This document shows, in pieces, positions 1 to 25,356 of a DNA stretch of 25,821 nucleotides; within the stretch, counting starts at the first letter, position 1, and each line of letters begins with the position of its first letter. This DNA is from Candidatus Enterousia sp. Lineage in GTDB: Bacteria > Pseudomonadota > Alphaproteobacteria > Rs-D84. Both the position numbers and the translations under genes were made by a program. The stretch spans positions 1 to 25,821 of the forward strand of contig JAZLBQ010000016.1 in assembly GCA_045613785.1 (NCBI GenBank). The letters run 5' to 3'. The notes under the pieces are model-generated. The model saw only the letters and a program-made list of their open reading frames with translations. It was not told where the DNA came from and searched no databases.

Positions 1-780
1 GCCCTTGCGGTATTCAATATTTGTTCCGCCCATACTTTCAAGCAGGCTTTTTGCTTCTTCTTCGCTTTCGCAAACTTTCAAAGCAGTTTTTCTGCCTGTT
101 TTCATAATTGCCCATTTATCAGCGGTTGCCCATCTTTCTTCGTTTGTGCAAGGTGCAAGTTCTGAATCTTCAAGCTTGCTTTCTGCTTCCAACTGTTCAA
201 CCTTTGAATAAATAAACTTTTCGATTTCTTCCAGATCTTCCGCAGTTACATCAAATCTATAAACGTATGTCGGCAACTGTGGATAGTTAGAATCAATTCT
301 TGCCTTGCTTTTTGAATGGTCTTTAAGAAGGGCGATGAATTCGCAACGCTTTACTTCTGCCCCGCACTTGCCCATAAGCCAAGCATAGATTAAACCCTGT
401 TTTCTCCAATCTTCAAAATCTTCAAACTGAATTTTCCAAACCGAAGCAGTCTTGAAATCGTGAAGTGTTTTTGTTTCTGGATCGTAAGAATCAACCCTGC
501 CCGTTACTTTTGAATTCAGTACATCAGCAGAATAAAATTCTTCCTTGATGGTGTTTGTGTTCTGCTTTTCCATAATTGAATGAACCGCAGTTCCAAAAAC
601 CGCCCACACAGAATCGCTTGCATCAACTTCAAGTTCGTCATAATGACGTTCGGTCAAAATTGTTTCGCAAGCCCCGTGCAGTAAAGTTGTTGCAGAATAG
701 CAACCTTTCTGATTGTGTCTTTCAACACTTACTGCATCCACAAATGCCTGTGGCAATCCAAGTTTGTTTGTTACTTTCAT
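1..780 (-). CDS. PD-(D/E)XK (Cas4/RecB-like) phage exonuclease, 3'-truncated by the window edge
   Basis: Not in the ORF track. Open frame from ATG at 780 (RBS AGGGGG) to the edge: MKVTNKLGLPQAFVDAV...FGTAVHSIME...VTGRVDSYD...LHDFKTAS...QGLIYAWL, containing the typical GTAVH, G-x-D, D-x-K and Q-x-x-x-Y motifs. Confidence 0.85.
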   Translation of the reverse strand, partial: MKVTNKLGLPQAFVDAVSVERHNQKGCYSATTLLHGACETILTERHYDELEVDASDSVWAVFGTAVHSIMEKQNTNTIKEEFYSADVLNSKVTGRVDSYDPETKTLHDFKTASVWKIQFEDFEDWRKQGLIYAWLMGKCGAEVKRCEFIALLKDHSKSKARIDSNYPQLPTYVYRFDVTAEDLEEIEKFIYSKVEQLEAESKLEDSELAPCTNEERWATADKWAIMKTGRKTALKVCESEEEAKSLLESMGGTNIEYRKG

Positions 781-812
781 AGTAAATCCCCCTAGTGATT
801 TAATTTAATATT

Positions 813-841
813 ATCTTAACACTATATTATAATAATGTCAA
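813..841 (-). promoter_or_regulatory. sigma70-type promoter for the nuclease gene, overlapped by an imperfect dyad
   Basis: Minus strand TTGACA-17 bp-TAAGAT with an extended TG. The arms TTGACATTAT and ATAGTGTTAA form an 8/10 inverted repeat. Confidence 0.6.
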
Positions 842-848
842 CACTTTT

Positions 849-1049
849 TTATATTGCGTTTCCGCTTGATTTTCCGCACCATCCATTATTATTGGAACTT
901 GTCGCAATCCCTTGCCATTCAATAACCCGTTTCATCTTCTGCCCGCATTCGGGGCAGGTTTGCCGATTCTTTAATCTGTCATAATCTTTAATACAGATTC
1001 CAACATTAAAAACTTTCCCGCAGGATTCACATTTGAACTTATAAACCAT
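849..1049 (-). CDS. FmdB-family zinc-ribbon protein
   Basis: Y-x-F-x-CxxC...CPxCG-x-x-M-x-R-V-I pattern, 66 aa. Confidence 0.75.
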   Translation of the reverse strand: MVYKFKCESCGKVFNVGICIKDYDRLKNRQTCPECGQKMKRVIEWQGIATSSNNNGWCGKSSGNAI

Positions 1050-1051
1050 TT

Positions 1052-1636
1052 TTATTTTACCCCCTTTAATGGCATTGCATAAGTAATTTTATTACCAGAT
1101 CTATTTTTTTCAAGTTCTGCATTATAACGTTTGGCAACTGCACAACATCTTGCACAACTGCAACTTTCGAATTCTTCCCTGTGGCAGGTCCAGGAAGGAT
1201 TACCGTAATTCTTGCAGAAAGAACCGCTTTTATGAACGCAATTATAACAAACTGTTTCGCCCTTGTCCCCGTTCTGATACTGTTTATTAAATCTAACAAC
1301 TTTCATTGGCGGTTGAAACTCTGATTTCTTCACAGACCTTGCACGGCAATCAAGCCCCTTTTCATAACAGGCAGGGCACATCGGCAAGCCGTAATCATAT
1401 TCACAACCGCATTCAAGGCAGACCGCCCAAATATATTCATTTGGTCTTTTGCCCGTAACTCTAACAAGCAGGCTTTTCATAATTGCAATCTCTGGAAACC
1501 TGCCGTTATTGCTTTTGTTTAATTCCCGCAGGAAGTTTTCTTTTTGTTCTTCTTCCAACTTACCAAGATTTTCTGCAACCCATTTTTTCTGTTCATCGGA
1601 TGCAGTTCCAAATCTGCTTTCAAGTTCATTAATCAT
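1052..1636 (-). CDS. Cys-rich putative Zn-binding protein of unknown function
   Basis: 194 aa with CLECGC, CPAC, CYNC and CSCARCC clusters. Overlaps the stop of the initiator gene. Confidence 0.7.
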   Translation of the reverse strand: MINELESRFGTASDEQKKWVAENLGKLEEEQKENFLRELNKSNNGRFPEIAIMKSLLVRVTGKRPNEYIWAVCLECGCEYDYGLPMCPACYEKGLDCRARSVKKSEFQPPMKVVRFNKQYQNGDKGETVCYNCVHKSGSFCKNYGNPSWTCHREEFESCSCARCCAVAKRYNAELEKNRSGNKITYAMPLKGVK

Positions 1637-2615
1637 TTTTTGCCCCCTTTATGTAATCATAATAATCGTCGTTCAATGCTGAATAATCAACGCCGTTCTT
1701 TTCATCTTCTGAAAGCCAATGTTTAATAAGGGCTTCAAGTTCTCTGCCTTTCGGCATTCCCATATTAAACCAATCTTTTTTGTGATAAACGAAAGTTGAA
1801 ATTCTATAAGTGCAACCGCTATCGAAATCAGCGTTCATTCTTTCTTCGATAAGCTGATTTAAACCGCCCTTCGGCATATCAATATATCTGGTCATATCAA
1901 AATTGTTCGGGATATATTCTACAACATTTTTATAAAAAGCATTAAGAGAAAAACTATTTTTCCAAGTGTCACTTTCTGCAACATAAAGATAATTTTCAAA
2001 TGCTGATTTCAGTTCATCCAGATTGTATTGCTTTGCAAGTTCTAAAAAGACACGACCTTTCCCCGTTTCAAAATAAAACAAATCTTTTTCAATCGGAATT
2101 ATATTTTTCTTTTTTGAATTATGCAGATTTATTTTATTAAAACAGTCTACAAGAAAAGGTTGCATCTCTGCTTTGATTACAGGAATAGTTTCTTGAATAT
2201 AAGCGGGCGGTTTTTCTGCTATATTATCAGTTATATTATTATTTATATTATTAGGTAAACTTTGTTTCATACCCCCATTAAACTTTGTTTCATACCCCTG
2301 TGAAACTTTGTTTAATACCCCATTAAACTTTGTTTCATACCCTGTAACTTTATAGGTGCAGAATTTCAAATTGTTCTGGAAAGTTTCATTTTTCAAAATC
2401 AACTGTTTTTCCATAAGGCTTTTTAATGCCTTCATTACACCTTGTTTTGTTGAATTAGTCCAATCTGCTAAATATTGCAGGCTTCCTGTAAATTCTGATT
2501 GACCATCCTGTGAAAATCCGTGAATGATTGCATAGATTAAAAGTTCGTTGCCTTTCAGTTGTAAATCATTCACCATAAAAGCTTGAATTGTGATAAAAGA
2601 TTTTTCTTTCACCAT
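1629..2615 (-). CDS. Phage replication initiator (N-terminal winged HTH)
   Basis: Likely start MVKEKSF at 2615 (RBS AAGGAG). LKGNELLIYAIIHGFSQDG...FTGSLQYLADW is a typical phage replisome-organiser N-terminus, and the gene carries internal iterons. Confidence 0.8.
   Translation of the reverse strand: MVKEKSFITIQAFMVNDLQLKGNELLIYAIIHGFSQDGQSEFTGSLQYLADWTNSTKQGVMKALKSLMEKQLILKNETFQNNLKFCTYKVTGYETKFNGVLNKVSQGYETKFNGGMKQSLPNNINNNITDNIAEKPPAYIQETIPVIKAEMQPFLVDCFNKINLHNSKKKNIIPIEKDLFYFETGKGRVFLELAKQYNLDELKSAFENYLYVAESDTWKNSFSLNAFYKNVVEYIPNNFDMTRYIDMPKGGLNQLIEERMNADFDSGCTYRISTFVYHKKDWFNMGMPKGRELEALIKHWLSEDEKNGVDYSALNDDYYDYIKGAKND
2221..2342. repeat. Probable replication origin: 4 iterons plus an AT-rich tract
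   Basis: AAACTTTGTTTMATACCC starts at 2257, 2280, 2303 and 2325 (spacing 23/23/22), next to an AT-rich stretch at 2221-2256, all inside the initiator gene (lambda O-like layout). Confidence 0.8.
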
Positions 2616-2632
2616 TTTGTTTTGTTCTCCTT

Positions 2633-2773
2633 TTGCCAAATAAAAAAGGTTTATCTCCTGCACTAGTCGGTGATGAAGCCGAATCCGCCCAAATTGCAAA
2701 ACGGAATTCTAATGCAGAAAATAAACCTTTCTTATGGCAACTTGTATTTTTGTTGGCTCATCACTTCCAACAA
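2633..2773 (-). ncRNA. Structured 5' leader RNA of the initiator gene
   Basis: A ~30-bp stem (2633-2666 with 2709-2740) whose mismatches are mostly G-U wobbles on the minus strand, plus two hairpins with complementary loops. Confidence 0.6.
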
Positions 2774-2778
2774 TCATT

Positions 2779-2807
2779 ATTATATAGCACTTATCTTATA
2801 ATGTAAA
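2779..2807 (-). promoter_or_regulatory. sigma70-type promoter of the replication operon
   Basis: Minus strand TTTACA-17 bp-TATAAT; predicted start site near 2773. Confidence 0.7.
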
Positions 2808-2964
2808 CAGAAAGTTAAATATTGCGTATAACAGGCTTTTCGGGGCTTGGTAATGATATTATACCTTTTTTGTTAAACACCCCCTGTTTTTTAAATCCTA
2901 GCCCTGTTATAGACCAAATTAATTAGTGGTAATTCCCTTTAATTTCCCATAATTCCCATAAAAT

Positions 2965-3003
2965 AAAAACCCGTGCGGGACATTGCATCCAGATCTGCAC
3001 GGG
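2965..3003 (-). terminator. Probable terminator at the end of the lysis operon
   Basis: Stem CCCGTGC/GCACGGG followed by a T-run on the minus strand. Confidence 0.55.
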
Positions 3004-3067
3004 AAACAAAAGTTTTTTATCACTCAATCAACTAGGGGGCTGATAGAGTAGATGTTTTTATAATACT

Positions 3068-3307
3068 TTATTTTTCTATGTCTGTCAAAATTGCATCAAC
3101 TGTAGAACCCCATTCTTCCCACTGCTGAACTAAATGTTCGTAGTAGTTTAGAAGTTCTGCAACTTCCTTCAAGTCTTTCGGGGCTTCCTTTTCTTCCCGT
3201 GCAGGCTTTGGGGGCAGGATTATTTCTTTTTCAATTTCCTTCGTTGTTCTGCACCCGCTGATTGTTAGAATTAACAATGTCGGCAATAATATTAAAAACT
3301 TCTTCAT
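3068..3307 (-). CDS. o-spanin-like lipoprotein (Rz1-like)
   Basis: Signal peptide with lipobox MKKFLILLPTLLILTISG-C and a Pro-rich segment. Overlaps the 3' end of the upstream i-spanin-like gene. Confidence 0.7.
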   Translation of the reverse strand: MKKFLILLPTLLILTISGCRTTKEIEKEIILPPKPAREEKEAPKDLKEVAELLNYYEHLVQQWEEWGSTVDAILTDIEK

Positions 3308-3545
3308 CGCTTCCTGCTTCCTTTATTTTTTCTGAAACCGATTTTTCATCGCTTTTTATTTTTAACAGTTTGTCAATGTATTTTGATAACTGTTCAACAT
3401 TCACTCTTGCAGCTTCAAGGCGGGCGTGTGCTTCTGCAAGTTCCTTTTTATTTAACTTGATTGTTTTTGCAAGTGTGTAAACTATCCCGCCAAGTGTAAC
3501 AATTATAGCAATTAATACCAGAATTAAAGTTGCCGTGAAACTCAT
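3231..3545 (-). CDS. i-spanin-like protein (Rz-like)
   Basis: N-terminal TM helix followed by coiled coil; lies after the holin and endolysin candidates. Confidence 0.65.
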   Translation of the reverse strand: MSFTATLILVLIAIIVTLGGIVYTLAKTIKLNKKELAEAHARLEAARVNVEQLSKYIDKLLKIKSDEKSVSEKIKEAGSDEEVFNIIADIVNSNNQRVQNNEGN

Positions 3546-3769
3546 TCTTCCACCTTCTTGAATTTATCAAGTGCCGTGTTAATTGAAATATCTCCAAAGA
3601 TTGCAGACATAGTTCCCGCAACCATGCAGATTTCATATATTGTCGCATTACCGAAAATACCCAACCACTTCATAACCGAACAGATAACAAGAAAGATAAT
3701 TGCCACAATTTTGACAATTAAAGAAACTTTCTTTGCCTTCAACTCTTTTTCTGTTTTTTCTTCTGTCAT
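3542..3769 (-). CDS. Putative holin
   Basis: 75 aa, two hydrophobic segments, charged termini, inside the lysis cassette. Confidence 0.6.
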   Translation of the reverse strand: MTEEKTEKELKAKKVSLIVKIVAIIFLVICSVMKWLGIFGNATIYEICMVAGTMSAIFGDISINTALDKFKKVEE

Positions 3770-4206
3770 TATTTCGCCCCCTTAATTTTTATAATTCTGC
3801 ATTCGGTTGCTTTTCCTTCTTCAACACATCTGGAAGAAGAAAGTGAATTAAAAACAACCTTGCCATCTTCAACCCCGACCCAATGCCCGTTATTGCCACG
3901 GCTGAATTTCACAATCGTTTTTTCTTTTATGTTTTTAATTGTTGTAATATTTTTCTTTTCAAAGCTTGCTATTTCTCGCCCTGTGATTCGTTTTATGCAC
4001 TCCGCCCAATAAACTGTGCATTCTTCATCAAGTGCGTGTTCTTCGATTAAATCAGATACAAGCATTATTGCTCCAATGTCTGACGGGTCCAATCCAAGCC
4101 ACCAGATCAACGTGAAAGCACAACACGCATAATCTTTAATTGATTTAAGCTTTGCATTCGGAAAATGCTTGTAAAGTTCTTCTGCCAAACTCTGCGGATT
4201 TTTCAT
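3769..4206 (-). CDS. Putative papain-fold Cys-peptidase endolysin (C39/DUF261-like)
   Basis: Candidate triad YACC / GHWV / FNSL; occupies the endolysin position upstream of the holin and spanins. Confidence 0.5.
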   Translation of the reverse strand: MKNPQSLAEELYKHFPNAKLKSIKDYACCAFTLIWWLGLDPSDIGAIMLVSDLIEEHALDEECTVYWAECIKRITGREIASFEKKNITTIKNIKEKTIVKFSRGNNGHWVGVEDGKVVFNSLSSSRCVEEGKATECRIIKIKGAK

Positions 4207-4733: not shown

Positions 4734-4768
4734 TAATATGCAATCTGTTACCTCAAATGCAGTGGCAG
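4734..4768 (+). repeat. Left 35-bp inverted repeat of the invertible tail cassette
   Basis: TAATATGCAATCTGTTACCTCAAATGCAGTGGCAG is the exact reverse complement of 5698-5732. Confidence 0.95.
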
Positions 4769-5295
4769 TTGCTATGCTTTTCAATCCAAAACTTCACATC
4801 ACCGATACTAGAGATAGTAATTTTGCGCCAGGTTATTATTTGGCAACTTATGGTGGTCAAACAGTTCAAGAATTTAAGAATACAAGCGTTATCAATACAC
4901 CTTTTAATACAGGCTCATTCTGTACACTGATTACTATGATTCCGTGGGCAGATTTATCGGGCGGTTTTCCAACACAATTTGCAATAAACACTTACATCAA
5001 TGGTGAAATAAAATATAGAGTTGCTTCAGATGCAAATAATTGGGGTGCTTGGGCAAAAATTGTAAATCAAAATGATATATCTTCAGCAGTATTTACAGTA
5101 GATACTGCACGCCAAAAAATAAACAATGCTCAAAGTAAATTAATTTATCGTGGCAACAAATTAGGCACAATAGATATATATGATGAAACAGGAAGCGGTT
5201 TATCAATAGATTTTGATTTTGATAATGGACAGATAAGAGTTTATTCTGTAGTCAGTGGTGTCACAATGGGGCAAAAAACTGCATATCTTTCATAA
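4738..5295 (+). CDS. Silent alternative C-terminus of the tail-tip protein (tail fibre knob-like domain)
   Basis: The only credible plus-strand ORF. It has no RBS, begins within the inverted repeat, and DTRDSNFAP...PWADLSGG...Q.A...YR...WGAW resembles tail-fibre/pyocin knob domains. Confidence 0.75.
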   Translation: MQSVTSNAVAVAMLFNPKLHITDTRDSNFAPGYYLATYGGQTVQEFKNTSVINTPFNTGSFCTLITMIPWADLSGGFPTQFAINTYINGEIKYRVASDANNWGAWAKIVNQNDISSAVFTVDTARQKINNAQSKLIYRGNKLGTIDIYDETGSGLSIDFDFDNGQIRVYSVVSGVTMGQKTAYLS

Positions 5296-5341: not shown

Positions 5342-7246
5342 TTATGCTATAAGCGTGTCGCAATACCAAACACCGTTTCTATAGCCAAATCTTTTTAGAC
5401 CAACGCCCGGGTGGAAATATATAAATGCAGACCAAAGTTTTGCATTTGTACCACCATAAGTGTACCCTAAAACCATAACGGTCATATTTGGATTTGCTAA
5501 ACCTATAAAAACTCTAAAACCGTGTTCAAAATAAGCGTTGTTATATAAATAATCAAACCATTCTTTGAAATAAATGCTATCATCAGTAGATTGTGACGGT
5601 AAATCTCCCCAAGAAATCAAAGGCAATCTGTATACCCAACTTAAATCATTTATATTGTATAACTGATTTAACATTTGTCCTAATGGAGTTATTGCCCCTG
5701 CCACTGCATTTGAGGTAACAGATTGCATATTACCGCTAGTGACTGTATCGACTGGCATAGCAGTACTGTTTGCAAGGGCGTCAGACGTTATCGGGGCATT
5801 GTTTCCTGCTTGAATTGTATTTGTAGGAGTTTCCGCAACGTTCACAATGTTTCCTGCTTCATCAACAGATATAATTGCAACATAAGTTCCCACATTCATC
5901 GTAAGATTGACTGCACCCGATTTTCCCGTTGTTAAAGTCAATTTTCCTGTTCCGCCTAACTGCTTGAACCAAACGTGGTAAGTTTTTGCTCCTGTCTTTT
6001 CATTATCGAGATAAAGGGTGAAGGTTGCGTTTGTTCCGACTGTTCCCACAAATCCGATTGTATTATACGTAACATCAGCTTTAGGCATTGTGGTATCTGT
6101 CGGGATTGTGTACCACCTTACAGAGTCTGTTGAGGTTGCTTTTTCACTTGCTTTCTGAATCTGTCGCAACATCAACTGTAACTGTTCTGCTAGGTTGTTC
6201 TGTGGCTTTCCGAAACTGAATTGAATGTCATAACTTCCCCAAGCCCAATGCTCTGTTACGGACAATATTTGAGCAACTGCGGATTTTCCCGAAAAAGCAA
6301 CCGTAATTATATCGCCTACATCGTATTGCTCTCTGAAAATATAAGGACACTTTGCAAGTCCATTTCCTGCCATTGTCAACGTCTGTCCATACTGTGAAAG
6401 CATAGACAAGGCTTCTGCTTCATACTCATTTTCAGTTGTCATTGAAGATTGATTATCCCAAGATTCAAACCTGTCAAATCCGCTCGGGCTTCCGTTTTCA
6501 CCTTCGTAAATGTCACGGTCATCATTTTGACCCTTTCCGCCAATGTAGATGGCATTACTGAAACTTTCTGAACTGTCGGAAAACTCACCGTTTGCAAGGC
6601 TTTCATAATTCGTATCAAATCTAACTGTCTGCGACAAATTATTTCCTGCATAAACTTCTAAAGTTAAAGAACCGTTAAAGGCAATCCGCCAACCGATTTC
6701 TGATTGTGTCGCTATCGTTTTGCAGACTTCATACAGATTTGTGAACTGCTCTGAAACGGAATAAACCTTGCCAATTGCGGATTCTGTCGCAGGAATAACA
6801 TTATTAATCGGCAACTGTCTTTTTGCTTCTGCACCGCTTCCACATTGGTCTTTAATCAGATTACGCAAACACAGTTCACCCTTTGCGGTCATTACCCAAA
6901 GCCCGTTAGAGTTCATGTTTTTTATAACTCTGCGTTTCAAAATATACCTTGCGTCATATCCTGTAATTGTTCGAACCTGCGAGCCTTTGCCATCTTGACC
7001 TATGGGATCTTGAATTGAATATATTTCCCCGAAGTCATAAGGATTGTTTCCAAACTGAACGAATAAGCCACGCTGAAATAACTGCGAGTTAGGAATATTA
7101 TAATTTATTGTTATCGTGAAAACTCCTGCACTGTATAAATTATGTTCAAAACTCACTTCTGCATAATCGTCAATTATGGCTTGTAGGACAAATTCACTGC
7201 TTGAGTAAGAATATAATTTTAACTGCGGTTTTTCTTTATAACTCAT
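5342..7246 (-). CDS. Tail-tip/baseplate hub protein (ReqiPepy6 Gp37-like) with variable receptor-binding C-terminus
   Basis: Likely start MSYKEKPQ at 7246 (RBS GAGGGG). Motifs ITGYD..ILKRR, AIYIGGKGQ..DR, GFDRFE and YDVGDIITV; position downstream of Dit. Confidence 0.8.
   Translation of the reverse strand: MSYKEKPQLKLYSYSSSEFVLQAIIDDYAEVSFEHNLYSAGVFTITINYNIPNSQLFQRGLFVQFGNNPYDFGEIYSIQDPIGQDGKGSQVRTITGYDARYILKRRVIKNMNSNGLWVMTAKGELCLRNLIKDQCGSGAEAKRQLPINNVIPATESAIGKVYSVSEQFTNLYEVCKTIATQSEIGWRIAFNGSLTLEVYAGNNLSQTVRFDTNYESLANGEFSDSSESFSNAIYIGGKGQNDDRDIYEGENGSPSGFDRFESWDNQSSMTTENEYEAEALSMLSQYGQTLTMAGNGLAKCPYIFREQYDVGDIITVAFSGKSAVAQILSVTEHWAWGSYDIQFSFGKPQNNLAEQLQLMLRQIQKASEKATSTDSVRWYTIPTDTTMPKADVTYNTIGFVGTVGTNATFTLYLDNEKTGAKTYHVWFKQLGGTGKLTLTTGKSGAVNLTMNVGTYVAIISVDEAGNIVNVAETPTNTIQAGNNAPITSDALANSTAMPVDTVTSGNMQSVTSNAVAGAITPLGQMLNQLYNINDLSWVYRLPLISWGDLPSQSTDDSIYFKEWFDYLYNNAYFEHGFRVFIGLANPNMTVMVLGYTYGGTNAKLWSAFIYFHPGVGLKRFGYRNGVWYCDTLIA
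5698..5732 (-). repeat. Right 35-bp inverted repeat, inside the tail-tip gene
   Basis: Exact reverse complement of 4734-4768. Confidence 0.95.
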
Positions 7247-7340
7247 TTTCGTTCCCCTCATCATCAAGAATTTTATTTACGATTATCCAAGTTAAACCTG
7301 TTATTCCCGTAACAGTCAAGACTAAAGCTAAAATCAGCAT
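7236..7340 (-). CDS. Small single-pass membrane peptide (34 aa)
   Basis: MLILALVLTVTGITGLTWIIVNKILDDEGNENEL. RBS GGGGTG, starts 1 bp after the Dit stop and overlaps the next start, filling the gap exactly. Confidence 0.55.
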   Translation of the reverse strand: MLILALVLTVTGITGLTWIIVNKILDDEGNENEL

Positions 7341-13594: not shown

Positions 13595-13608
13595 ACTTAC
13601 CAGATCAA

Positions 13609-14532
13609 TTAAGAAAGACTTGCGTCAGTATATGGTGTTACACTAACCCCGTTATTATCTTTCAATCCGCTTGTAACAGTAACGGCAGTTATAACACCTG
13701 TTTCTGCTTCTGCCTTTGTGAAAGTAATTGTCGGTGCAGTTGCAGTTCCACCAAATGCAAGTGTTCCCGCCATACTCTTTCCGTCATCGTCAAATACAAC
13801 AATAGATTCGCCTACGATTGCACTTGATTCTGCAAAAGTAAATGCTTCGGCACTTCCCTTAGAACCTGTCAAGACAAGTTTTCCGTTTGACAATGCACCG
13901 CTTACAGTAACGGCACTCAATGACTGTGAAACAGAAACGATTGGTGCATTGAACCATCCCGAAAGAAGTGATGCACTTGCGGTTGGATCATCGGTGCGGA
14001 TATGTGTGCAGATAGTTCCGCTTTCCTGTCCGTCTGGAACAAAGAAAGTCTGTGTGAACTGTGCAGTTACATTAATATGACCGAAGTTAAGGCTTTCCTG
14101 TTTTGTTTCACCGCCTGTTTCGGGAACAGAGAATTTTCCTTTTGCATACCAGAAATACTGATAGCGGTTGTTTCCGTTTGCGTCTTTTCCCGCAAGCCAT
14201 ACACGGAAACCGAACGCAAAATCTGCACTCTGGTCAAGTACAGTTTCAACAGTAACACCGTTAACCTTTCTCTGTCCGAGCATAAGAGCCAAAACGGAGG
14301 GGTCAACATCAATCATTTCAAGATTGAGTTCTGTGTTGCCACGATTAGAAGCCGAGAAGAATGGACCATTGTCCGCATAATCAACGGCTACATCCGAGTT
14401 CGGATTAACGGTTGCATTTACTGCACCTTTTAACGCAATCGGTGTATCATATACGATTCCGCCTGCATCATCCGAAAGAACCTTTGCGATAACTACGTTA
14501 TCAAGACCAATTTTTGGTGCTTCGTTTGCCAT
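13609..14532 (-). CDS. Major tail protein (phi13-like) with C-terminal Ig-like extension
   Basis: KIGLDNVVIA, DYADNGP, FAFGFR and YFWYAKGKF motifs; about 105-aa beta-rich C-terminal addition. Confidence 0.85.
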   Translation of the reverse strand: MANEAPKIGLDNVVIAKVLSDDAGGIVYDTPIALKGAVNATVNPNSDVAVDYADNGPFFSASNRGNTELNLEMIDVDPSVLALMLGQRKVNGVTVETVLDQSADFAFGFRVWLAGKDANGNNRYQYFWYAKGKFSVPETGGETKQESLNFGHINVTAQFTQTFFVPDGQESGTICTHIRTDDPTASASLLSGWFNAPIVSVSQSLSAVTVSGALSNGKLVLTGSKGSAEAFTFAESSAIVGESIVVFDDDGKSMAGTLAFGGTATAPTITFTKAEAETGVITAVTVTSGLKDNNGVSVTPYTDASLS

Positions 14533-15373: not shown

Positions 15374-15776
15374 CTTCACCGCCTTCCGTTGGTTCTACAG
15401 GTTCGGGTGTCGGTTCGGGATCTGGTGTTTCTTCTGCTTCATTTTCAACAGGAACAAGCAGACATTCCCCGTGCTTACTCCACGCATTAATCGGCATTAT
15501 ATTAAACAATTCCGATTTGCCCGTAAAACTAGAAAGCACTTTTGCCCGATTACCACTTTTAATATTTTCGTGATAGCCGTTATATAAAAACAATCTGACA
15601 TTTCCTTTGCTTGTGGAAAGTCCGAAAGCTTTGATTTCATCTTCTGTCAATGTATGGGGCTGAACATCGCCTTTGATTTCTTCCACCTTCGACCAATCGG
15701 CAATAACATCGCCTTCATCGTCTACTTCTGAAACTTCGGCTAATATCTCCACAACGGCATTATTAAAACGAACCAT
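15357..15776 (-). CDS. Head closure / head-tail adaptor protein
   Basis: Position after the connector; beta-rich core with an acidic Pro/Glu C-terminal tail. Confidence 0.6.
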   Translation of the reverse strand: MVRFNNAVVEILAEVSEVDDEGDVIADWSKVEEIKGDVQPHTLTEDEIKAFGLSTSKGNVRLFLYNGYHENIKSGNRAKVLSSFTGKSELFNIMPINAWSKHGECLLVPVENEAEETPDPEPTPEPVEPTEGGEDGEGD

Positions 15777-16827: not shown

Positions 16828-18138
16828 TTAAGATACAGAATATGTTCCGTGAACAAATGCTTTTGGCTGACGGCAAGCAAAGTCAACTTCTGCGATAAGA
16901 CGGATAAGTGTCAAATCACGGTCGAATGCTGAAATTACTGAACCGTTGTCTGTGAATGTTCCTTCACGAGATACTTCGATCGAAATATCCTTTGAAATAC
17001 CGAACATCATTTCTGCAAAGTCACCAAGCCAGAAATCAGCATAATCGGTTGTAGTATCAACATACTTAACAGTTGAAGAACTGTGGAAATCATATCCACG
17101 AAGTCTACCTGTTCTTGACATTTCTTCTGACCAAGCGAATGGACCGCTTGCGAATGCCTTGTTGCGAATCCAAGATTCACCAATTGGGTTAAGCAACCAA
17201 TGAACATTTTCCATACGAACGTTAGCCTGTTCAAGAAGGGCAACCATATCGTTTGGTGTTGTCAATGCAAATGCAGTTGAAGAACTTCCGCTTGTCTGTA
17301 CATCTGGATTGTTTGCAAGTCCTAATGGCTGATACTGTGAACCTGTACCATTGAGAAGTGCATCATCAAGGGCAATGCGAGCTTTACGCATCAAATCTTC
17401 TGCAACCCATCCTTCAAGGTTTACACCGCTTTCACGGATAAGTGTATTTGACATTGCAGACTTAGCAAAAAGCTTTTTAGCACGCATATTTACTTCACCG
17501 AATGTTGGCTGAGTAATTCCACCAACTGTTTCTTCACCGCCCCAAGAAATAGCAGATGTTGTGTCCATTCTTGGAATAGAAAGATTTCCGTGAATAAGTG
17601 GAACACGGCGGATGTTCAATTTGTCGATAAGTGTATTAGCAACAAGGGCATCAATGTATTCACCGCTGAAAGCAAGTGGAACTGTGAAACCACCATCCGA
17701 AGGTGTTCCCGCAGTCATTGTCTTAACTCTTGCTTCAAGTACATTGTGAAGTGCCTTTGAATATGGGAAGTCTTTCTTTGCCTGTGCAAGAACTTCTTCT
17801 GGTGTAACCTGTTTAATGTTACTTGCGTTCTTATGACCCATTGCAGAAACTGCCGATGCAATCATCTGATTTACAATTGTTACAGGTGTTTCTTTTGCCT
17901 TGATGTTGTTTCCAGAACCAACGGCTTCTTTGAAGGCTTCAAGATAAGCAACGTTTTCTGCCTTTGTCTTATCTGCATTTTCGTTGATTTCCTTAACGGC
18001 TTTTGCAACGGCTTCGTCAATCTGTGCCTGTGATACACCTGCACCCAATTCCTTCTTGATTTCTTCTGTTTTAGAAGCAATCTGTTTTTCGGAACGCTCA
18101 TCAATGAGCTTTTCCAAATCTTTCATTTCCATCTGCAT
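16828..18138 (-). CDS. Major capsid protein, HK97 family
   Basis: Coiled-coil delta domain, then K|TMTAGTPSDGGFTVP, LLNGTG..QPLGL and WLGDF motifs. Confidence 0.95.
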   Translation of the reverse strand: MQMEMKDLEKLIDERSEKQIASKTEEIKKELGAGVSQAQIDEAVAKAVKEINENADKTKAENVAYLEAFKEAVGSGNNIKAKETPVTIVNQMIASAVSAMGHKNASNIKQVTPEEVLAQAKKDFPYSKALHNVLEARVKTMTAGTPSDGGFTVPLAFSGEYIDALVANTLIDKLNIRRVPLIHGNLSIPRMDTTSAISWGGEETVGGITQPTFGEVNMRAKKLFAKSAMSNTLIRESGVNLEGWVAEDLMRKARIALDDALLNGTGSQYQPLGLANNPDVQTSGSSSTAFALTTPNDMVALLEQANVRMENVHWLLNPIGESWIRNKAFASGPFAWSEEMSRTGRLRGYDFHSSSTVKYVDTTTDYADFWLGDFAEMMFGISKDISIEVSREGTFTDNGSVISAFDRDLTLIRLIAEVDFACRQPKAFVHGTYSVS

Positions 18139-19240: not shown

Positions 19241-19822
19241 TTAAAGCCCTGTCAATGTTACAACAACTTTAGCCATTCCGTCTTTGCCTTCTGTCGGTTC
19301 AATTTCAACGGGTTCTGTATAAGTTGAAGCATCAATCGAAACGGCTTTTGAAGTTTCAATTTCTGGAACATTTGAAAGTGTGATTGTTGCTTTCTTCATT
19401 CCGTCTTTTCCGCTTGTTGGTGTAACTTCAACAGGGGCAGTATAAGTTGATACATTAATTGTCTGTGCCTTGTTATCTTCCAGATCTACATCGGTTAGTG
19501 CAACGGCAGAGTATGACACTTTCTTTACGTCATAATCACAATCACCAACAATTCCCACGGCAACATCACAACCAACGATTTTCACAAACTTCTTTGCACC
19601 TTCAAGTGAAAAAGTGAAACCTTTGTTAAGGCTTGCGTGTCCGCTATCAAGTGTTTTGAAATCTGTATAACTTCCACCGACTGTGTCGCAATGCTGAACC
19701 TTTACGGGTGTTCCATTTGTTCCACCGATACAAACAACCGCAAGTGTATCAATTCCAAGTCTATTGAAAGCGGTCTTTGCATCGCCAATAATTCCAATCT
19801 TGTCTAACATTGTTTTACTCAT
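19241..19822 (-). CDS. Putative virion decoration protein with two C-terminal repeats
   Basis: N-domain resembles 16424-16708; tandem ~41-aa repeats STYT.PVE..PT.GKDGM.K..[IV]TL. Confidence 0.5.
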   Translation of the reverse strand: MSKTMLDKIGIIGDAKTAFNRLGIDTLAVVCIGGTNGTPVKVQHCDTVGGSYTDFKTLDSGHASLNKGFTFSLEGAKKFVKIVGCDVAVGIVGDCDYDVKKVSYSAVALTDVDLEDNKAQTINVSTYTAPVEVTPTSGKDGMKKATITLSNVPEIETSKAVSIDASTYTEPVEIEPTEGKDGMAKVVVTLTGL

Positions 19823-19846: not shown

Positions 19847-21970
19847 TTACATCATTACAAACGGGGCAACAGTACACCTGCAATTTGCGACCTGTCCAAC
19901 AGGTGCTGACGGGTCCCCCGCATAATCCATCCAAGCCCCTTCCGTCTGACTTGTTGCAGGTACTTCAAACTTATCGGTTGTCGGGATAACAGTTCCATCC
20001 ATCAGCAAGTGAGAATCACGGGTTCTGTCATCCTGTACTGAAATCCATTCTTTATAGTTTATACCTTCCGCCTTGTATAATTCCATTGCTCCTGCATTCA
20101 TTGTAGAACAAGATTCAGTTCTTGCAATCAATGTTGCACGGGCTTTTTTATCTTCTGCAAAAGAATCATCAGCAACGGCAACAAGTGCTTTCACCTGTTT
20201 TCTCAAATCTTCACCACGCTCAATGCTTTCTGAAAGTGCCTTGCGAAGTTTCTTTTTTGTGGTGTTATTCATATCACGGCATAATTCAAGCCCGTAATTA
20301 TCAACCCACAAATTGAATAAACGTCTTACTTCATCGCTGATTTCTTTTACACCTTTTTTATTTAGAAGTTCGCTTCCGTGTTCTGCACCTACTGTCAAAC
20401 CATTTATGAAAGCACCAGCTAACGTATGTTTCAACGCTTCATCCATCTTGTTGTCAAAAAGGTTTTTAATTGCAGTTGGAACATCCTTGTTTTCTTCGCA
20501 AGCTTTTCTGATTGCTTCATCAACCAATTCATTCTGTTTTGTAAATGCTTTAATCATAGACTTGCGAAAAGGTTCTTCAATGCTCATTGCCCTTGCATCA
20601 AATACTTTCCAGATCGTTTTTCGTCTTTCCTTGTCTGCATCCGATTTCAACATTTTATACTTGCTTTCATAATTTTTTTTTATGGTGTTATATTCTTCTT
20701 CGGAAAGTTCTTTTTCTGCATCCGCTTCTGTGTTTGGTAATTCAACAGGATTGCTTTCTACTTCGGGAAGTTCAATAGGCTCTGAATTAAAAGGTTGTTC
20801 AACCTGTCCGAAGCCCCGCAAATAAATATCACCGCCCTTTTCGTCTGGTTCAAATCCCATACCAATTCGCCAATCGTTGACAGTAAGAACACCACGGGAA
20901 AGTCCGTCATTTAAGATTTGCAGTTTCTGTGAAATATCTTCTGAAATATTGTTTTCGTGATGCAGAATTAAATTCTGTTCCTTGTCGTAATCTTCCCACA
21001 ATAACTGTGAGTTGATAACACGCTCAAACATTCGCAAGCGGTCTGCTAATACGTTTTTATTAAGCAAATATTCTGCACTGTCGATTGTGCTTCTGTTTGA
21101 GTTCTGCAAAATACCCATAATTTCGGGCGGAATGTGGAAGTGTTCGTTTGCACTATCACGCAAGAATCTTCGGCTTTCTACAAAATCCAATTCTGTCGGG
21201 CTTTGTGAAATCTTTTCAAACTTACTTCCTTCACCTGTCAAAACCATTGGTTCTTTTGCGTGATGGAATCCCGCCATCTTCTGCAACCAAGACTGTTTGA
21301 TCTGGTCTGCGGTTTCCTTGTTGCCCTGTGGTGCATAAATAATTGCAGATGGTGTTGCATCATTAAAGAAAAGATTCTTTGCATATTTTGACGCATATTC
21401 ATCCGACTGTATTTCATCTCCGATGGCTTCGGCAGTTCCCTTTCCCCTGCCATAAGGGTCGTTTAAATCTATATCCTTAAAACAAATTACATCTTCAACA
21501 GGAACATAAATTGAATTTCCGCTTGCAGTTCCTAACGGGTAAATCTCCCAATATTTAGAAGTTGCCGATGGTGTCTGAACTACCCAAGAAGGGGCAACAG
21601 GTTGCAAAGCAATTACCTTTCCCCTTGCATCACGGATTTTTAAAAGATAAGCTTCACCGACTAAATCATAACAAGCAAAAACAAAATAACGGATAGTCCA
21701 TCCCGTCAATTCTCTATCAGATGGGCAAGGATTTTCAAGCAAATTATAAATGTCGTGGGTTTCAATAACTTCTGCTTTGTTTTTGTTTTTTCGGTAGTCT
21801 GATTTTTTGTATAAGAATAATTCGGTGCTTGCACATTTATTCGCAATTACACGCACCCCGTCTAAACGAGGATTGGTGTGATATAAAGCCAACAAGTCAC
21901 GGCTTGCCATTGTTGGAGCTTGCGACCAAGTTTTCCTAATCATCGTCTTGATTCTTTCAAGTGGATTCAT
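19847..21970 (-). CDS. Portal protein (HK97-like) fused to a MuF/SPP1 gp7 minor head domain
   Basis: Portal motifs (VGEAYL, FFNDATPSAII, FHIPPEIMG, LTVNDWR) plus C-terminal RATLIARTE, KEWISVQDDRTRDSH and NCRC. Confidence 0.9.
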   Translation of the reverse strand: MNPLERIKTMIRKTWSQAPTMASRDLLALYHTNPRLDGVRVIANKCASTELFLYKKSDYRKNKNKAEVIETHDIYNLLENPCPSDRELTGWTIRYFVFACYDLVGEAYLLKIRDARGKVIALQPVAPSWVVQTPSATSKYWEIYPLGTASGNSIYVPVEDVICFKDIDLNDPYGRGKGTAEAIGDEIQSDEYASKYAKNLFFNDATPSAIIYAPQGNKETADQIKQSWLQKMAGFHHAKEPMVLTGEGSKFEKISQSPTELDFVESRRFLRDSANEHFHIPPEIMGILQNSNRSTIDSAEYLLNKNVLADRLRMFERVINSQLLWEDYDKEQNLILHHENNISEDISQKLQILNDGLSRGVLTVNDWRIGMGFEPDEKGGDIYLRGFGQVEQPFNSEPIELPEVESNPVELPNTEADAEKELSEEEYNTIKKNYESKYKMLKSDADKERRKTIWKVFDARAMSIEEPFRKSMIKAFTKQNELVDEAIRKACEENKDVPTAIKNLFDNKMDEALKHTLAGAFINGLTVGAEHGSELLNKKGVKEISDEVRRLFNLWVDNYGLELCRDMNNTTKKKLRKALSESIERGEDLRKQVKALVAVADDSFAEDKKARATLIARTESCSTMNAGAMELYKAEGINYKEWISVQDDRTRDSHLLMDGTVIPTTDKFEVPATSQTEGAWMDYAGDPSAPVGQVANCRCTVAPFVMM

Positions 21971-22005
21971 AAAAAGTTACTTCCTTTTCTTGATATTTGA
22001 TTTTT

Positions 22006-22034: not shown

Positions 22035-22039
22035 AATTG

Positions 22040-22348: not shown

Positions 22349-22566
22349 TTTGTAACAGTCTTTTTCGGTGCTTCCTTGTTTACAATCTTTTCTTTCTGTT
22401 CATCTGGAACGAAAACCATTCCAAGATAATCGCACTTATAGATATAGCCCCCAAAAGTACGTGTTATCTCATAACCTGTTTCTGCATCCAAGCAAGCCTG
22501 CCCGAATTTCAGCCCTTCCAATTTTTCCTTCAAATCTTCGTCTGGATGACGTACTACCCGTGCCAT
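22345..22566 (-). CDS. Hypothetical protein
   Basis: 73 aa, RBS GGGGG, overlaps the next gene by 4 bp. Confidence 0.65.
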   Translation of the reverse strand: MARVVRHPDEDLKEKLEGLKFGQACLDAETGYEITRTFGGYIYKCDYLGMVFVPDEQKEKIVNKEAPKKTVTK

Positions 22567-22577
22567 TTTTAACCCCC

Positions 22578-23876
22578 TTAATATAACATAGGTCTATTTA
22601 TTTTAGGCTCATAAAAGAGCATTAAAACCGAATCCGCCTTGTCGGGTGATTTCCCGTTGTTCCTTGCTTTGTAACTGTCTTTACTTTCAACCACCCGCCT
22701 TGCTTTGTGGTCATAAGAAAAACGTCTGTCGGTCAATTCGTGGAACAATCCCGAATCATTTATTAATGATACATCAGATATTGGAAAAGTACACCACATT
22801 TCACTTGGTAAATCTGCAAACTTGTCTATGTCCTGTGGTTTACTTCCGAAGTTTATCCCTATAACATTTTTATAACCCCTAGATTGTAGAATGTCTACAA
22901 CACCACCGCCAACACCTGTTTCATCAACCTTTATTGTCATATTATGATTATTTCCCGCCATTACTTCAATATGTCCGCACAACTCGACCAATGACATATT
23001 TTTATATTCTTTAAGTTCTTTAAGCTTCAAGCCTTTACGCATTGAAATTATTGAACTATCTGAACCATAACGGGCAACGTCCACCGCAATTTGATAATCA
23101 CCTTCATCGTCAACTTCCCTTTCCATTGCTTCGTGTACTGCTATTCTTGACATAACTGCATTATCTGCCTGTGATAAATATTCACCTTCCCAGATGTGGC
23201 GGGCTATATCTGGATTGAACTTATAATCGGCTTCCCTGTCCTTTGCAAGTTTTTCAGTAAACCACGGGTTATTGTTCCAATTACATTTGACTACAACCGC
23301 ACCTTCACGCAGTTTCAAACTTTCAATTGCATCTTCTTCTGTGTTCGGGTTATAACTTGCCCATATTTCCGACCCGTTCATTCGGATTGTCGGAATAAGC
23401 ATCTGCAAACTTTCTGCGGACACGCTTTGTGCTTCTTCTATCCACGCTCTGTCGTAACCTTCAAGGGATTTAATCGCATTGCCCGCCCTTAAATCTTTCA
23501 AGCCCCTAAATATTACACGGCTTCCGTTTTCGTTTTCCAAAACATCCCGCAGGATATTCCAACCGCCCAATTTCAAACGCTTTATTGTTTCCACACATAG
23601 TTTATAAACTGAATCATCAAGGGATTTCTGAATTTCACGGCAACAAACAAGATTGTGTCTTTCTGCGGTCAATTCCTGCATTAAAAGGCTTGCTATACTC
23701 CAAGACTTGCCCGAACCACGACCGCCAAATGTTATTTTATATGGTGCGGGTTTTCTGAAAACTTCAAGACACGGCACAACCTGTGAAGCATAAAGCCATA
23801 AATATTTTTTCTGATTTTCTGCTGATAGTTTGAGAAATTGTTCTTTTGTTATTTTTGGAATCAGCGGTTCTATCAT
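22578..23876 (-). CDS. terL: Terminase large subunit (PBSX-like)
   Basis: GGRGSGKS Walker A, CCREIQKSL, WIEEAQ Walker B, VDVARYGSD and SPDKADS nuclease motifs. Confidence 0.95.
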   Translation of the reverse strand: MIEPLIPKITKEQFLKLSAENQKKYLWLYASQVVPCLEVFRKPAPYKITFGGRGSGKSWSIASLLMQELTAERHNLVCCREIQKSLDDSVYKLCVETIKRLKLGGWNILRDVLENENGSRVIFRGLKDLRAGNAIKSLEGYDRAWIEEAQSVSAESLQMLIPTIRMNGSEIWASYNPNTEEDAIESLKLREGAVVVKCNWNNNPWFTEKLAKDREADYKFNPDIARHIWEGEYLSQADNAVMSRIAVHEAMEREVDDEGDYQIAVDVARYGSDSSIISMRKGLKLKELKEYKNMSLVELCGHIEVMAGNNHNMTIKVDETGVGGGVVDILQSRGYKNVIGINFGSKPQDIDKFADLPSEMWCTFPISDVSLINDSGLFHELTDRRFSYDHKARRVVESKDSYKARNNGKSPDKADSVLMLFYEPKINRPMLY

Positions 23877-24235
23877 TTCATTAATTCTTCAAAAGCCTGT
23901 AATCTTTCTTCGGTTGTCTGTAATTCTGTTTTTATTTCTCCAGAAAGATTCAATTTGCTTCCTTCGGTTGCTTCCCTTACTTCACGCAACATTGCCACGC
24001 TTGAACTATCGCCCCTTGCGATAATCTTTTTCATACATTCATTGACAAGCTCTGCACCTGTCAATTTTCTTTCTTTATCGCCTTGCCTTACGTTGTATTC
24101 TTTTCCAAGAAACTCTGCATAAATCTGCGACATCAATTTTCTTTTTTCTGTGTTTTCCTTTCGCTTTTGTACTGATTTCATCTGCATTTTTTTTGCTTCG
24201 TCTGTTGTGGGTATTCTTAAATTCTGCTCATTCAT
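23873..24235 (-). CDS. Probable terminase small subunit
   Basis: 120-aa helical protein overlapping the terL start; NEQNL..PT..EA N-terminus. Confidence 0.6.
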   Translation of the reverse strand: MNEQNLRIPTTDEAKKMQMKSVQKRKENTEKRKLMSQIYAEFLGKEYNVRQGDKERKLTGAELVNECMKKIIARGDSSSVAMLREVREATEGSKLNLSGEIKTELQTTEERLQAFEELMK

Positions 24236-25356
24236 TTCTTCCCCCTTTTTCGTGCAATATTCGTGCTACTTTCTACTTTTTCATAACCTTTGCCGATATA
24301 TTGAAAACTATATGTATTACGTTGTTTAGAACATTGTTTTGCAGTAATACTATTTTTACCACACATTAAATGCCCTGTGTGAATACACTTGAAATTCTTA
24401 TTCTTCATAACAGTTCTTACAAAACCCTTTAAGCTTGTAATTAATGAAAAATAGGTTATATCAGTGTTTTTCATTACATATTCACCAAGCCAATTAATCA
24501 TATATTGACCGATTCCTAATCCTTGATAATCTGGCATTACAACAATTCTGTGATAAATCCCCATTTTTCTATGGCTATTACAAGGAAAGTGTATATAGCT
24601 ACAGAATCCAACAGGCTTTCCGCTTTCTGTAAAAACTGTGAATTCTTTTGCATTTTTATTAAAAGAATGGCTCAAATAGTGATACTTGCTAAAATATTTC
24701 CAATATCCTTTTGTTTCTCTGATGTTGAGTTTAATTTTTTTTCGCCGATGTAACCCCCTTGTAATTTTGAATTCCATTGTATCTGTATAAAAAATCCAAT
24801 CGGGTTCAAGCCATTCTATTACATCAAAATGGCAGGTAATTGCTATAAATTTCTTATTTCTTTTTCTTACTGTTTTTTGAATAGCAAGGCTTCCAAACTG
24901 TGCAACTTCTCTGTCTATAACTGATGTATATTCATCAAATGCAATTATTTCTTTATTCTGCAATAAAGCCCTTGCCAGATCCACACGCATTTTTTCACCG
25001 TTTGATAATACATTATAGGGTTTAATCCAACTCTTTGGTGTTGAGAATCCTACTGCATTTAATGTCTTTATTATATCTTCATAGGATAAACCCTTTTCAA
25101 AATCATCTATTACAGAATCTTTTGAATATTTGAAATTACATATATAATCACCGAATAATTCTTTTGCTATTGTTGTTTTTCCTGTTCCAGATTTACCGAC
25201 AATTATTCCAATATTCCATTCATCTGGTAAATCAAAAGAACCTGTGAATTCTTCTTTGATTAAATCTTCCTGTAAATCGAATTGGTCATAAATTTGCGAA
25301 ACCCTAAAAGATTTCTGTTTTATTTCATTTTCTTTTATAATGTTGAAACTTTGCAT
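24232..25356 (-). CDS. ABC-type ATPase fused to a GNAT acetyltransferase
   Basis: GKSGTGKTT, LSNGEKMR, IAFDEYTS and ITCH motifs, followed by FSKYHYL and RIVVMPDYQGLGIG (acetyl-CoA motif). Confidence 0.9.
   Translation of the reverse strand: MQSFNIIKENEIKQKSFRVSQIYDQFDLQEDLIKEEFTGSFDLPDEWNIGIIVGKSGTGKTTIAKELFGDYICNFKYSKDSVIDDFEKGLSYEDIIKTLNAVGFSTPKSWIKPYNVLSNGEKMRVDLARALLQNKEIIAFDEYTSVIDREVAQFGSLAIQKTVRKRNKKFIAITCHFDVIEWLEPDWIFYTDTMEFKITRGLHRRKKIKLNIRETKGYWKYFSKYHYLSHSFNKNAKEFTVFTESGKPVGFCSYIHFPCNSHRKMGIYHRIVVMPDYQGLGIGQYMINWLGEYVMKNTDITYFSLITSLKGFVRTVMKNKNFKCIHTGHLMCGKNSITAKQCSKQRNTYSFQYIGKGYEKVESSTNIARKRGKK

Follow-up and report, generated by a model that had tools for sequence, protein, structure and literature searches.

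Genome context of the window

The window, the whole 25,821-bp stretch of DNA analysed here (contig JAZLBQ010000016.1, designated C16), belongs to a genome bin of 26 contigs and 1.04 Mb and carries most of a phage of approximately 36 kb sampled from an animal-gut metagenome. Exact end overlaps with two further contigs, C17 and C20 (C16–C17, 125 bp; C17–C20, 98 bp; C20–C16, 141 bp), closed the phage genome into a circle of ~35.8 kb. In this genome the four-base word GATC is rare and is found mostly inside the seven-base word CCAGATC; this pattern, the other purged words around it and a putative DNA mark on CCAGA/TCTGG are the subject of the present analysis. PHROG matches revealed terminase, portal, major head and tape measure genes (Table 1), and further siphophage genes included a protease, head-tail connectors, a major tail protein, homologues of Dit and tail proteins, an exonuclease and a replication initiator. 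All but two genes of the window were located on one strand, with a skewed composition. The gene order of the closed genome was matched by two related contigs, L095 and L178, and relatives of 40–45 kb were scored as complete by CheckV. No match could be obtained when 8 kb of the window were compared by megablast against 50,697 phage records.

Table 1. Positions of words, genes and other features in the phage genome (window coordinates unless another contig is named)
Feature	Position	Strand	Remark
Whole window (contig C16)	1-25821		~72% of the ~35.8-kb siphophage circle (C16+C17+C20), in which many words are avoided as restriction sites to an extreme degree
CCAGATC	231-237	+	antisense to gene, codon phase 0, reads GAT CTG G
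CCAGATC	1095-1101	+	count and frame analysis
CCAGATC, intergenic	2989-2995	+	count and frame analysis
CCAGATC	4102-4108	+	count and frame analysis
CCAGATC, intergenic	13600-13606	+	count and frame analysis
CCAGATC (GATCTGG on + strand)	15419-15425	-	retained in 7/7 aligned window-type (lineage-A/A2) loci
CCAGATC	19480-19486	+	10 aligned relatives: CCAAATC 6, CAAGGTC 4
CCAGATC	20609-20615	+	relatives: CCAGATC 4, CCAGATT 6, CCAAATC 3, CCAGATA 2, other 5
CCAGATC (GATCTGG on + strand)	21299-21305	-	21 aligned relatives TATCTGG, AATCTGG, GATTTGG or similar; GATC in 0/21
CCAGATC	24975-24981	+	count and frame analysis
GATC outside CCAGATC, context GGATCG	480-483		reads TCTG-GATC, overlap with TCTGG is the G alone
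GATC outside CCAGATC, context GGATCT	7006-7009		count
GATC outside CCAGATC, context GGATCA	13986-13989		count
GATC outside CCAGATC, context CGATCG	16978-16981		count
CCAGG	1190-1194	+	one of four CCAG without 3' A
CCAGG	4828-4832	+	one of four CCAG without 3' A
CCAGC	20415-20419	+	one of four CCAG without 3' A
CCAGT (ACTGG on + strand; CTGG at 5752)	5751-5755	-	one of four CCAG without 3' A
Terminase	22578-23876	-	PHROG match
Portal	19847-21970	-	PHROG match
Major head	16828-18138	-	PHROG match
Tape measure	9867-12893	-	PHROG match
C5-methylase ORF1	C17 898-1695		PF00145 positions 2-216, E 6.5e-43
C5-methylase ORF2	C17 1801-2517		PF00145 positions 244-322, E 9.1e-12
Cassette-swap locus	C17 (L036) 634-3809; L178 6394-7878		3' of the exonuclease gene
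ORF of 374 aa	24232-25356	-	PHROG 11143, function unassigned
Inverted repeat, 42 nt	4734-4775 / 5691-5732		93% complementary, flanks 915 bp
ORF within the 915-bp segment	4738-5295	+	weak PHROG match, host-range/adsorption protein
Tail protein gene	5342-7267	-	last ~125 codons within the 915-bp segment

ORF, open reading frame; aa, amino acids.

GATC survives within CCAGATC

The null model consisted of 500 shuffles in which the protein and the codon usage of each gene were kept. GATC occurred 14 times in the window, compared to 57.3 ± 5.8 times in the shuffles and ~84 times as expected from base composition at a G+C content of 37.0%. Ten of the 14 sites were CCAGATC, eight on the forward strand and two as GATCTGG, against 3.8 ± 1.2 in the shuffles; the share of CCAGATC among GATC was therefore 0.71, where the shuffles reached 0.067 on average and 0.14 at most. 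A preliminary description, made by eye from the letters of the contig, had listed 14 GATC sites, ten of them in this context, and the recount returned the same sites. Its expected number of ~80 agrees with the composition value but lies well above the shuffles, and its figures of ~35% G+C and ~2% chance per site for the CCAGATC context are replaced here by the counted 37.0% and the shuffle mean of 0.067.

In the closed genome, 27 GATC sites could be counted, consisting of 22 CCAGATC, four GGATC and one CGATCG. The base after CCAGATC was T in eight cases, A in six, C in five and G in three. CCA on one side was sufficient, with any base on the opposite flank, so that the context (22/27) acts in a dominant manner, as expected of a shield. 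All four five-base words on the other strand were tolerated once CCA flanked the site; therefore, a sum of purges of longer words cannot yield the pattern. Moreover, 24 CCAGATC sites in a pool of eight contigs were distributed over all three frames (9 sense, 12 antisense and 3 intergenic), and this presence in all frames, on both strands and between genes excludes a coding effect.

Comparison with related sequences revealed that 58 of 286 CCAGA were followed by TC in the window pool, L001–L005, L095 and L026/L034, whereas the other groups combined had no such case among 445. Within the window type, CCAGATC accounted for 12 of 14 GATC sites in L095, 12 of 13 in L178, 12 of 13 in L188 (which overlaps L178 and L034), five of six in L034 and the only one in L094. 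Turnover of sites could also be observed, CCAGATC having been gained at synonymous positions where relatives or sister lineages avoid GATC. The site at 19480 was gained in the window phage, since the aligned relatives read CCAAATC or CAAGGTC there, and the variants at 20609 were all synonymous codings of x-Ile-Trp (Table 1).

A sister type (L006–L009, L029/L179, L031, L056, L180, L181 and L230–L233) retained GATC nearly always as GGATC, mostly GGATCG. The GGATC type made up 14 of 16 GATC sites in L179, 11 of 12 in L180, eight of ten in L181 and all 26 in L230–L233. GGATCG was considered as a second shielded word in this type and rejected, as both of its flanks were constrained and no enrichment was present (6 vs 15.4; 8 vs 5.4). 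A shield is not needed there because purging of AGATC, TGATC and the two palindromes GGATCC and CGATCG is enough to explain the prevalence of GGATCG. A four-base TCWG mark was likewise rejected for the window type: every GATCTG was GATCTGG except one, which was itself also CCAGATC, and GATCAGC was absent.

The main genome of the bin, with 41% G+C, showed none of the biases of the phage. CCAGATC represented 27 of 804 GATC sites (3.4%) on ten of its large contigs, and all 16 NCAGN words occurred in it. One or more other related phages were represented in the bin by five small contigs (C6, C9, C11, C13 and C23), with duplicate terminase and portal genes; the GATC sites on these were mostly of the GGATC type plus two GATCTGG. 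Two other contigs had purge profiles of their own, namely C21 (40.6 kb; one CATG, seven GATC, carrying an N6/N4 methylase) and C2 (11.1 kb; no GATC); these are probably other mobile elements or phages.

Breadth of the purge and the CCAG words

Depletion in the window extended to many other words, including CATG (3 vs 46 in shuffles), CCGG (1 vs 31), GGCC (0 vs 23), GCGC (3 vs 29), CGCG (3 vs 19), CCTC (12 vs 57), ACAGC (0 vs 49) and TCAGG (2 vs 34). When minimal avoided words were defined as those at 15% of expectation or less in a 47.7-kb pool, six four-base, ~20 five-base and ~34 six-base words were obtained, many of them 6-bp palindromes. Many of the purged words match the targets of restriction enzymes such as NlaIII, HpaII, HaeIII, HhaI, MnlI, EcoRII, BsrI and BbvI/TseI, besides 6-bp palindromes. 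The depletion went beyond what codon usage and protein sequence produce, and it was symmetric between strands (CCAGA, 19 on the forward and 27 on the reverse strand, with all frames occupied). The profiles of NCAGN and four-base words varied among 35 related loci found by means of the capsid protein (69–91% identity). The window phage is a case of restriction-site avoidance taken very far, with about sixty short words purged. In excerpts of the report of Rusinov et al. 2018 (PMC6286503), short words, mostly targets of orthodox Type II enzymes, are described as avoided in phage genomes. The window phage resembles the cases in those excerpts in being a double-stranded DNA phage with avoidance on both strands and independent of coding. 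It differs from them in a far broader purge with many asymmetric five-base words, in relatives that have distinct purge profiles at 69–91% capsid identity, and in one purged word that persists only within a longer asymmetric word. Such lineage-specific profiles can be used as a read-out of restriction specificities in uncultured hosts, including the asymmetric words CCAGA, TCAGC, CCTGA and GCTGT.

CCAG was also found in a single dominant context. The preliminary description had estimated ~45 CCAGA/TCTGG against ~4 others; the count gave 46 against four among 50 CCAG/CTGG sites, one CTGG that it had placed at 5751 being located at 5752. The share of CCAGA among CCAG was 0.92 compared to a shuffle mean of 0.40 and a maximum of 0.51. 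CCAGA itself was neutral in the window (46 vs 42.9 ± 4.8 in shuffles), whereas CCAGC (1 vs 16.7), CCAGG (2 vs 10.2) and CCAGT (1 vs 36.3) were depleted; TCAGC was neutral as well (39 vs 45.6 ± 5.5). In the phage pool, with strands combined, the counts of NCAGN for A, C, G and T as the 3' base were 194, 0, 149 and 119 after a 5' A; 97, 3, 4 and 2 after C; 260, 3, 91 and 122 after G; and 110, 68, 3 and 60 after T. Six of these cells were empty or nearly so, while the remainder were normal or high.

The capsid relatives revealed that the words are lost one by one. L016, L032, L033 and L035 retained CCAGC (71), CCAGT (90) and CCAGA (153) but had purged CCAGG (5). L017 retained CCAGC (31) and TCAGG (44) and had purged CCAGG (2) and CCAGT (3), and L019/L020 retained ACAGC (41) and CCAGG (17), with TCAGC purged (5) and CCAGC at 0. 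CCAGA itself was purged in L014/L015 (2 vs 38 expected), together with GCAGG (4), and was absent from L021 (0 vs 7 expected) and from the 11.4 kb of L011 (0 vs 17 expected), which contained no CCAG and no CAGC whatsoever. It formed only one of 21 CCAG sites in L057, one of 54 in L058 and one of 16 in L060. Loss of CCAGA from these six groups means that CCAGA-directed pressure exists in the ecosystem. In L058/L105 (15.6 kb), 53 of 54 CCAG sites were CCAGC, a mirror image of the pattern in the window.

Other words behaved in the same manner. CAGC persisted nearly only as TCAGC (39/42 in the window; 68/74 in the phage pool), and AGCT persisted nearly only as AAGCT in nine window-type sequences such as L001, L003, L034 and L095 (129/136), where AAGCTT was common (n = 56). 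The flank-pair counts of AGCT fitted a two-flank multiplicative model, in which the five-base word of each strand is purged independently. Since each CCAGN word is lost or retained separately in relatives, the unit of selection is the five-base word. The restriction of CCAG to CCAGA is the leftover of three purges, those of CCAGG, CCAGT/ACTGG and CCAGC/GCTGG, and CCAGA is not selected against in this lineage. A leftover and a true shield can thus be separated, for a word limited to one context, by the sufficiency of one flank and by comparison of relatives.

A possible overlapping mark on CCAGA/TCTGG

The survival of GATC within CCAGATC may be explained by a strand-specific methyl shield of CCAGA/TCTGG, of phage or host origin, that protects the overlapping GATC; we give this proposal about even chances. 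In virion DNA the asymmetric word would be methylated in a strand-specific manner. One possibility is 5-methylcytosine (m5C) or N4-methylcytosine (m4C) at the C of TCTGG, a base shared with GATC on that strand; the other is N6-methyladenine (m6A) at the final A of CCAGA, which likewise belongs to GATC. In TCTGG the sole methylatable base is the C, and in GATCTGG this is the C of GATC. An overlapping GATC would then be half-modified and would be cut poorly by GATC-specific restriction enzymes. CCAGATC is tolerated, even somewhat favoured, while other GATC sites are purged.

Both components have known counterparts. Excerpts of two reports describe a Type IIS system of Neisseria meningitidis with an m5C methylase (NEIS0771) that recognises CCAGA (PMC7973814, PMC7046676). 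This system is alike in the five-base word and in cytosine-5 methylation, and it makes both a pressure on CCAGA and a mark on it realistic; it differs in an unrelated organism and habitat, the likeness being one of recognition word and type of methylation. Site avoidance and overlap protection are already known, and the context-limited survival of purged GATC is a variant of a known strategy. In cloning practice, overlap with Dam or Dcm sites can block restriction sites. For the GATC enzyme DpnIII, the excerpted report states that fully 5mC-methylated DNA is not cut and that hemimethylated DNA is cut less efficiently (PMC4471560). As in these cases, a methyl group belonging to a different, overlapping word would protect the target, and one methylated strand would lower cleavage; unlike them, the window phage is known by its evolutionary footprint alone, and its protected word is also enriched, which overlap blocking does not predict. 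A limited literature search on CCAGA methylases and on phage avoidance with overlapping methylation returned no description of a purged site surviving only in a longer asymmetric word. If the shield on CCAGATC is real, it is a natural case in which methylation of one word guards another, overlapping restriction target and thereby shapes the composition of a genome. Genes for the biosynthesis or transfer of hypermodified bases were not found in PHROG and Pfam scans, which covered mostly ORFs of ~100 aa or more. The wholesale purging of sites disfavours a global modification such as deazaguanine or hydroxymethyl or glucosyl pyrimidines.

Excess of CCAGATC over the null models

CCAGATC exceeded the shuffle expectation 2.4–4.4-fold in every region and phage examined: 11 vs 3.1 in C17, 4 vs 1.4 in the early part and 5 vs 2.1 in the structural part of C16, 7 vs 1.7 in the early region of L178, 8 vs 2.1 in that of L095, 5 vs 1.2 in L034 and 4 vs 0.9 in L001. 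A stricter null was constructed from synonymous codon swaps, in which 57 purged words and unshielded GATC were barred from increasing and CCAGATC was allowed. This null produced 12.5 ± 2.1 CCAGATC (26 samples from five chains, range 8–17; 10–14 in the first run) compared to 22 observed. In the early/replication module of C17, total GATC was 12 against 17.0 ± 3.3 expected, whereas the structural genes had 8 against 42.6. Leucine before G was encoded by CTG in seven of 13 cases after GAT and in three of 74 after other codons ending in T. The spacing of CCAGATC in four sequences was neither periodic nor even (P 0.12–0.88 and 0.15–0.71), and no conservation could be seen in the flanks beyond the seven bases.

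Candidate writer genes

A cytosine-5 (C5) methylase was detected on C17, where the N-terminal catalytic motifs and the C-terminal motifs of PF00145 were both present across two ORFs (Table 1) separated by several in-frame stops. Profile searches with PF01555 and PF02086 gave no match on the phage contigs, leaving the C5 enzyme as the sole methylase in the closed 35.8-kb genome. The homologue in L095 was also split, at another point, both of its ORFs (353 and 254 aa) being intact. The C-terminal ORF, used as a query, had 3370 matches among proteins of 130–417 aa, and many of those listed (the best 120 of 3370) were 140–260 aa long, which indicates that stand-alone proteins like this ORF are common. 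The split appears to be genuine and not an isolated break. Two target-recognition-like modules could be discerned by eye, and the NCBIfam model 'DCM_methyl_Nterm' scored 22.5 and 26.7 bits, below its cut-off of 93. The N-terminal ORF had no match in ten related viral records; its homologues were found at 12 viral loci, of which one exceeded 30% identity and was without GATC. Orphan, multispecific or two-subunit C5-methylases occur in phages and bacteria, as in the SPR, phi3T and SPbeta enzymes and M.AquI. The enzyme of the window phage resembles them in being phage-borne and early-region, in having motifs over two ORFs and in apparently having more than one target-recognition module. However, their classic targets GGCC, CCGG, GCGC and CCWGG were all purged in the window phage; therefore, its C5-methylase gives these words no protection.

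The C5-methylase occupied a cassette-swap locus 3' of the exonuclease gene, at which a 275-aa N6/N4 methylase was present in L178 (Table 1). Upstream of the terminase there is another variable locus, which in the window contained the 374-aa ORF with an ABC-type ATPase domain and a GNAT acetyltransferase domain, and relatives had an N6/N4 methylase or another gene at this place. This ORF was rejected as the cause of the CCAGATC signature, as tblastn found it in none of seven relative sets and it cannot explain a shared signature. Two small ORFs present only in the window type (1052–1636 and 3769–4206) were also set aside; they revealed no modifying function, and their nearest annotated Atlas clusters were G39P-like (0.85; 11% of members) and DUF261 (17% of members). 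In the sister type, G006 had no match to any of the three methylase families.

Alternative explanations

An artefact of codon usage or amino-acid composition might be suspected in a genome with a skewed composition and nearly all of its genes (all but two) on one strand. However, none of the 500 codon- and protein-preserving shuffles came near the observed values, and the pattern is strand-symmetric and present in every frame, so that this explanation has next to no probability. The preliminary description had itself held that the bias should vanish under such a shuffle if it were spurious, and it persisted. That description had further proposed a single CCAGA mark shielding both CCAG and GATC, which supposes one enzyme against CCAG and one against GATC, with one modified base of CCAGA shielding both targets and unshielded CCAGB being purged. 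The proportions in the window (46/50 CCAG as CCAGA; 10/14 GATC overlapping CCAGA) and the lack of CCAG in the 11.4 kb of L011 would fit such a double shield. It appears very improbable, however, given that CCAGC, CCAGG and CCAGT were lost separately (the L016 group, L017, L019/L020), that the same leftover pattern exists for CAGC (TCAGC 68/74) and AGCT (AAGCT 129/136), and that CCAGA is not enriched (46 vs 43). The GATC half of the proposal agrees with the one-sided rescue by CCA and its confinement to one lineage, whereas the CCAG half is neither needed nor supported, CCAGA being neutral and CCAGC, CCAGG and CCAGT toggling separately. Another explanation is that CCAGATC is positively selected, as a protein site, as a nicked half-protected GATC that feeds recombination-dependent replication, or as the footprint of T-to-C short-patch repair at GATT. 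It draws on the excess that remains even under the permissive null (22 vs 12.5 ± 2.1), on the bias to CTG for leucine after GAT (7/13 vs 3/74) and on a density of sites that peaks in the early/recombination module with its ERF, SSB and exonuclease genes, a module in which the GATC total comes close to the expected number (12 vs 17). The positions nevertheless turn over among relatives, strand bias, periodic or even spacing and conserved flanks past seven bases are lacking, and the excess may stem from an imperfect null, which leaves positive selection improbable. A more specific and less probable form is that the lineage cultivates half-protected GATC, with a host GATC enzyme nicking CCAGATC instead of cutting it and the strand-specific nicks feeding replication through ERF, SSB and exonuclease, or that the excess is the T-to-C repair footprint. 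If that were the case, a T-to-C short-patch repair bias tied to cytosine methylation of GATC would be the first such footprint in a phage.

The protective mark on CCAGA/TCTGG is preferred to these explanations, and several points weigh against it. The mark is read from a footprint that evolution left in the sequence. Among survivors of four other purged words ending in TC, TGG came next in 5 of 39 cases compared to a baseline of 1.7%; the comparison is post hoc and the words are nested, so purged words other than GATC show at most a weak rise before TGG. Protection alone leaves the ~1.8-fold excess of CCAGATC over the constrained null unexplained, and it does not account for the denser CCAGATC in the early and replication region. 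The host is not identifiable from binning: capsid relatives (L181–L187) were binned with Treponema, Acutalibacteraceae and Christensenellaceae and the window phage with a small alphaproteobacterial bin, and, as these taxa are unrelated, a bin is no evidence of host for phages of this family. It is also difficult to assign a writer to the mark. A sister phage, G003 (L034, L178 and L188), has the full CCAGATC signature, and no PF00145 match was found in its 31 kb, the missing part of the genome being tail genes. At the C5 locus it has the 275-aa N6/N4 methylase, encoded at L178 6369–7196, which is 82% identical to that of L180, where GATC was found as GGATC (11/12) and never as CCAGATC. Its second N6/N4 methylase, encoded at L034 2351–3640, was rejected as the writer, since relatives at 88% and 76% identity occur in contigs with CCAGATC in none of six and none of two GATC sites. 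The preliminary description had expected the bias to co-occur with specific modification genes, but no phage methylase family tracks the signature in the sister records, and none of the genes that window-type phages share and the sister type lacks has a recognisable modifying function.

With regard to the origin of the mark, the split and possibly two-target C5-methylase of the phage could be the writer, methylating TCTGG with or without CCAGA, protecting CCAGA from a Type IIS enzyme and, incidentally, half-methylating any GATC that overlaps. No other methylase was found in the closed genome, and Neisseria has an m5C CCAGA methylase. Among long contigs, a close homologue of the target-recognition ORF (73% identity) was found only in L095, where 12 of 14 GATC sites are CCAGATC, and a 2.4-kb contig at 72% identity has its single site in this form. 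Where the homologues do not exceed 61% identity, contigs of 4 kb or longer are mostly without CCAGATC. On the other hand, L095 is a close relative, so its co-occurrence is not independent of descent; L043, with an N-terminal ORF 71% identical, has no GATC and is hence uninformative; and the in-frame stops and the differing split point in L095 mean that activity is not assured. This writer is doubted above all because G003 has the signature without any C5-methylase match, while relatives of its N6/N4 methylases lack the signature (L180 and the contigs with 0/6 and 0/2), and the assignment is considered unlikely. Given G003, one target may have been reached independently by different cassettes, or the mark of a host enzyme may be carried over. 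A host methylase would act if all hosts of the lineage modify CCAGA, the mark being carried on progeny DNA, with CCAGA left unpurged and GATC shielded from variable GATC systems. Phages that differ in their methylase cassettes, with either C5 or N6/N4 enzymes only, have the signature in common, it is tracked by none of the phage genes, and the purging of CCAGA in other lineages indicates that CCAGA-specific systems circulate. Against this stand the dependence on a host that binning does not identify and the sister type, which has almost all of the purge profile in common but no CCAGATC and would need a host difference of one enzyme. A host origin can be put forward only tentatively, and it is at least as likely as the C5-methylase of the phage.

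Invertible-like segment near the tail protein gene

A 42-nt inverted repeat flanks a 915-bp segment of the window (Table 1). The segment contains the sole large ORF on the forward strand, and the tail protein gene reaches into it with its last ~125 codons. No invertase for it was noticed. The segment looks like an invertible one, whose inversion would exchange the C-terminal end of the tail protein.

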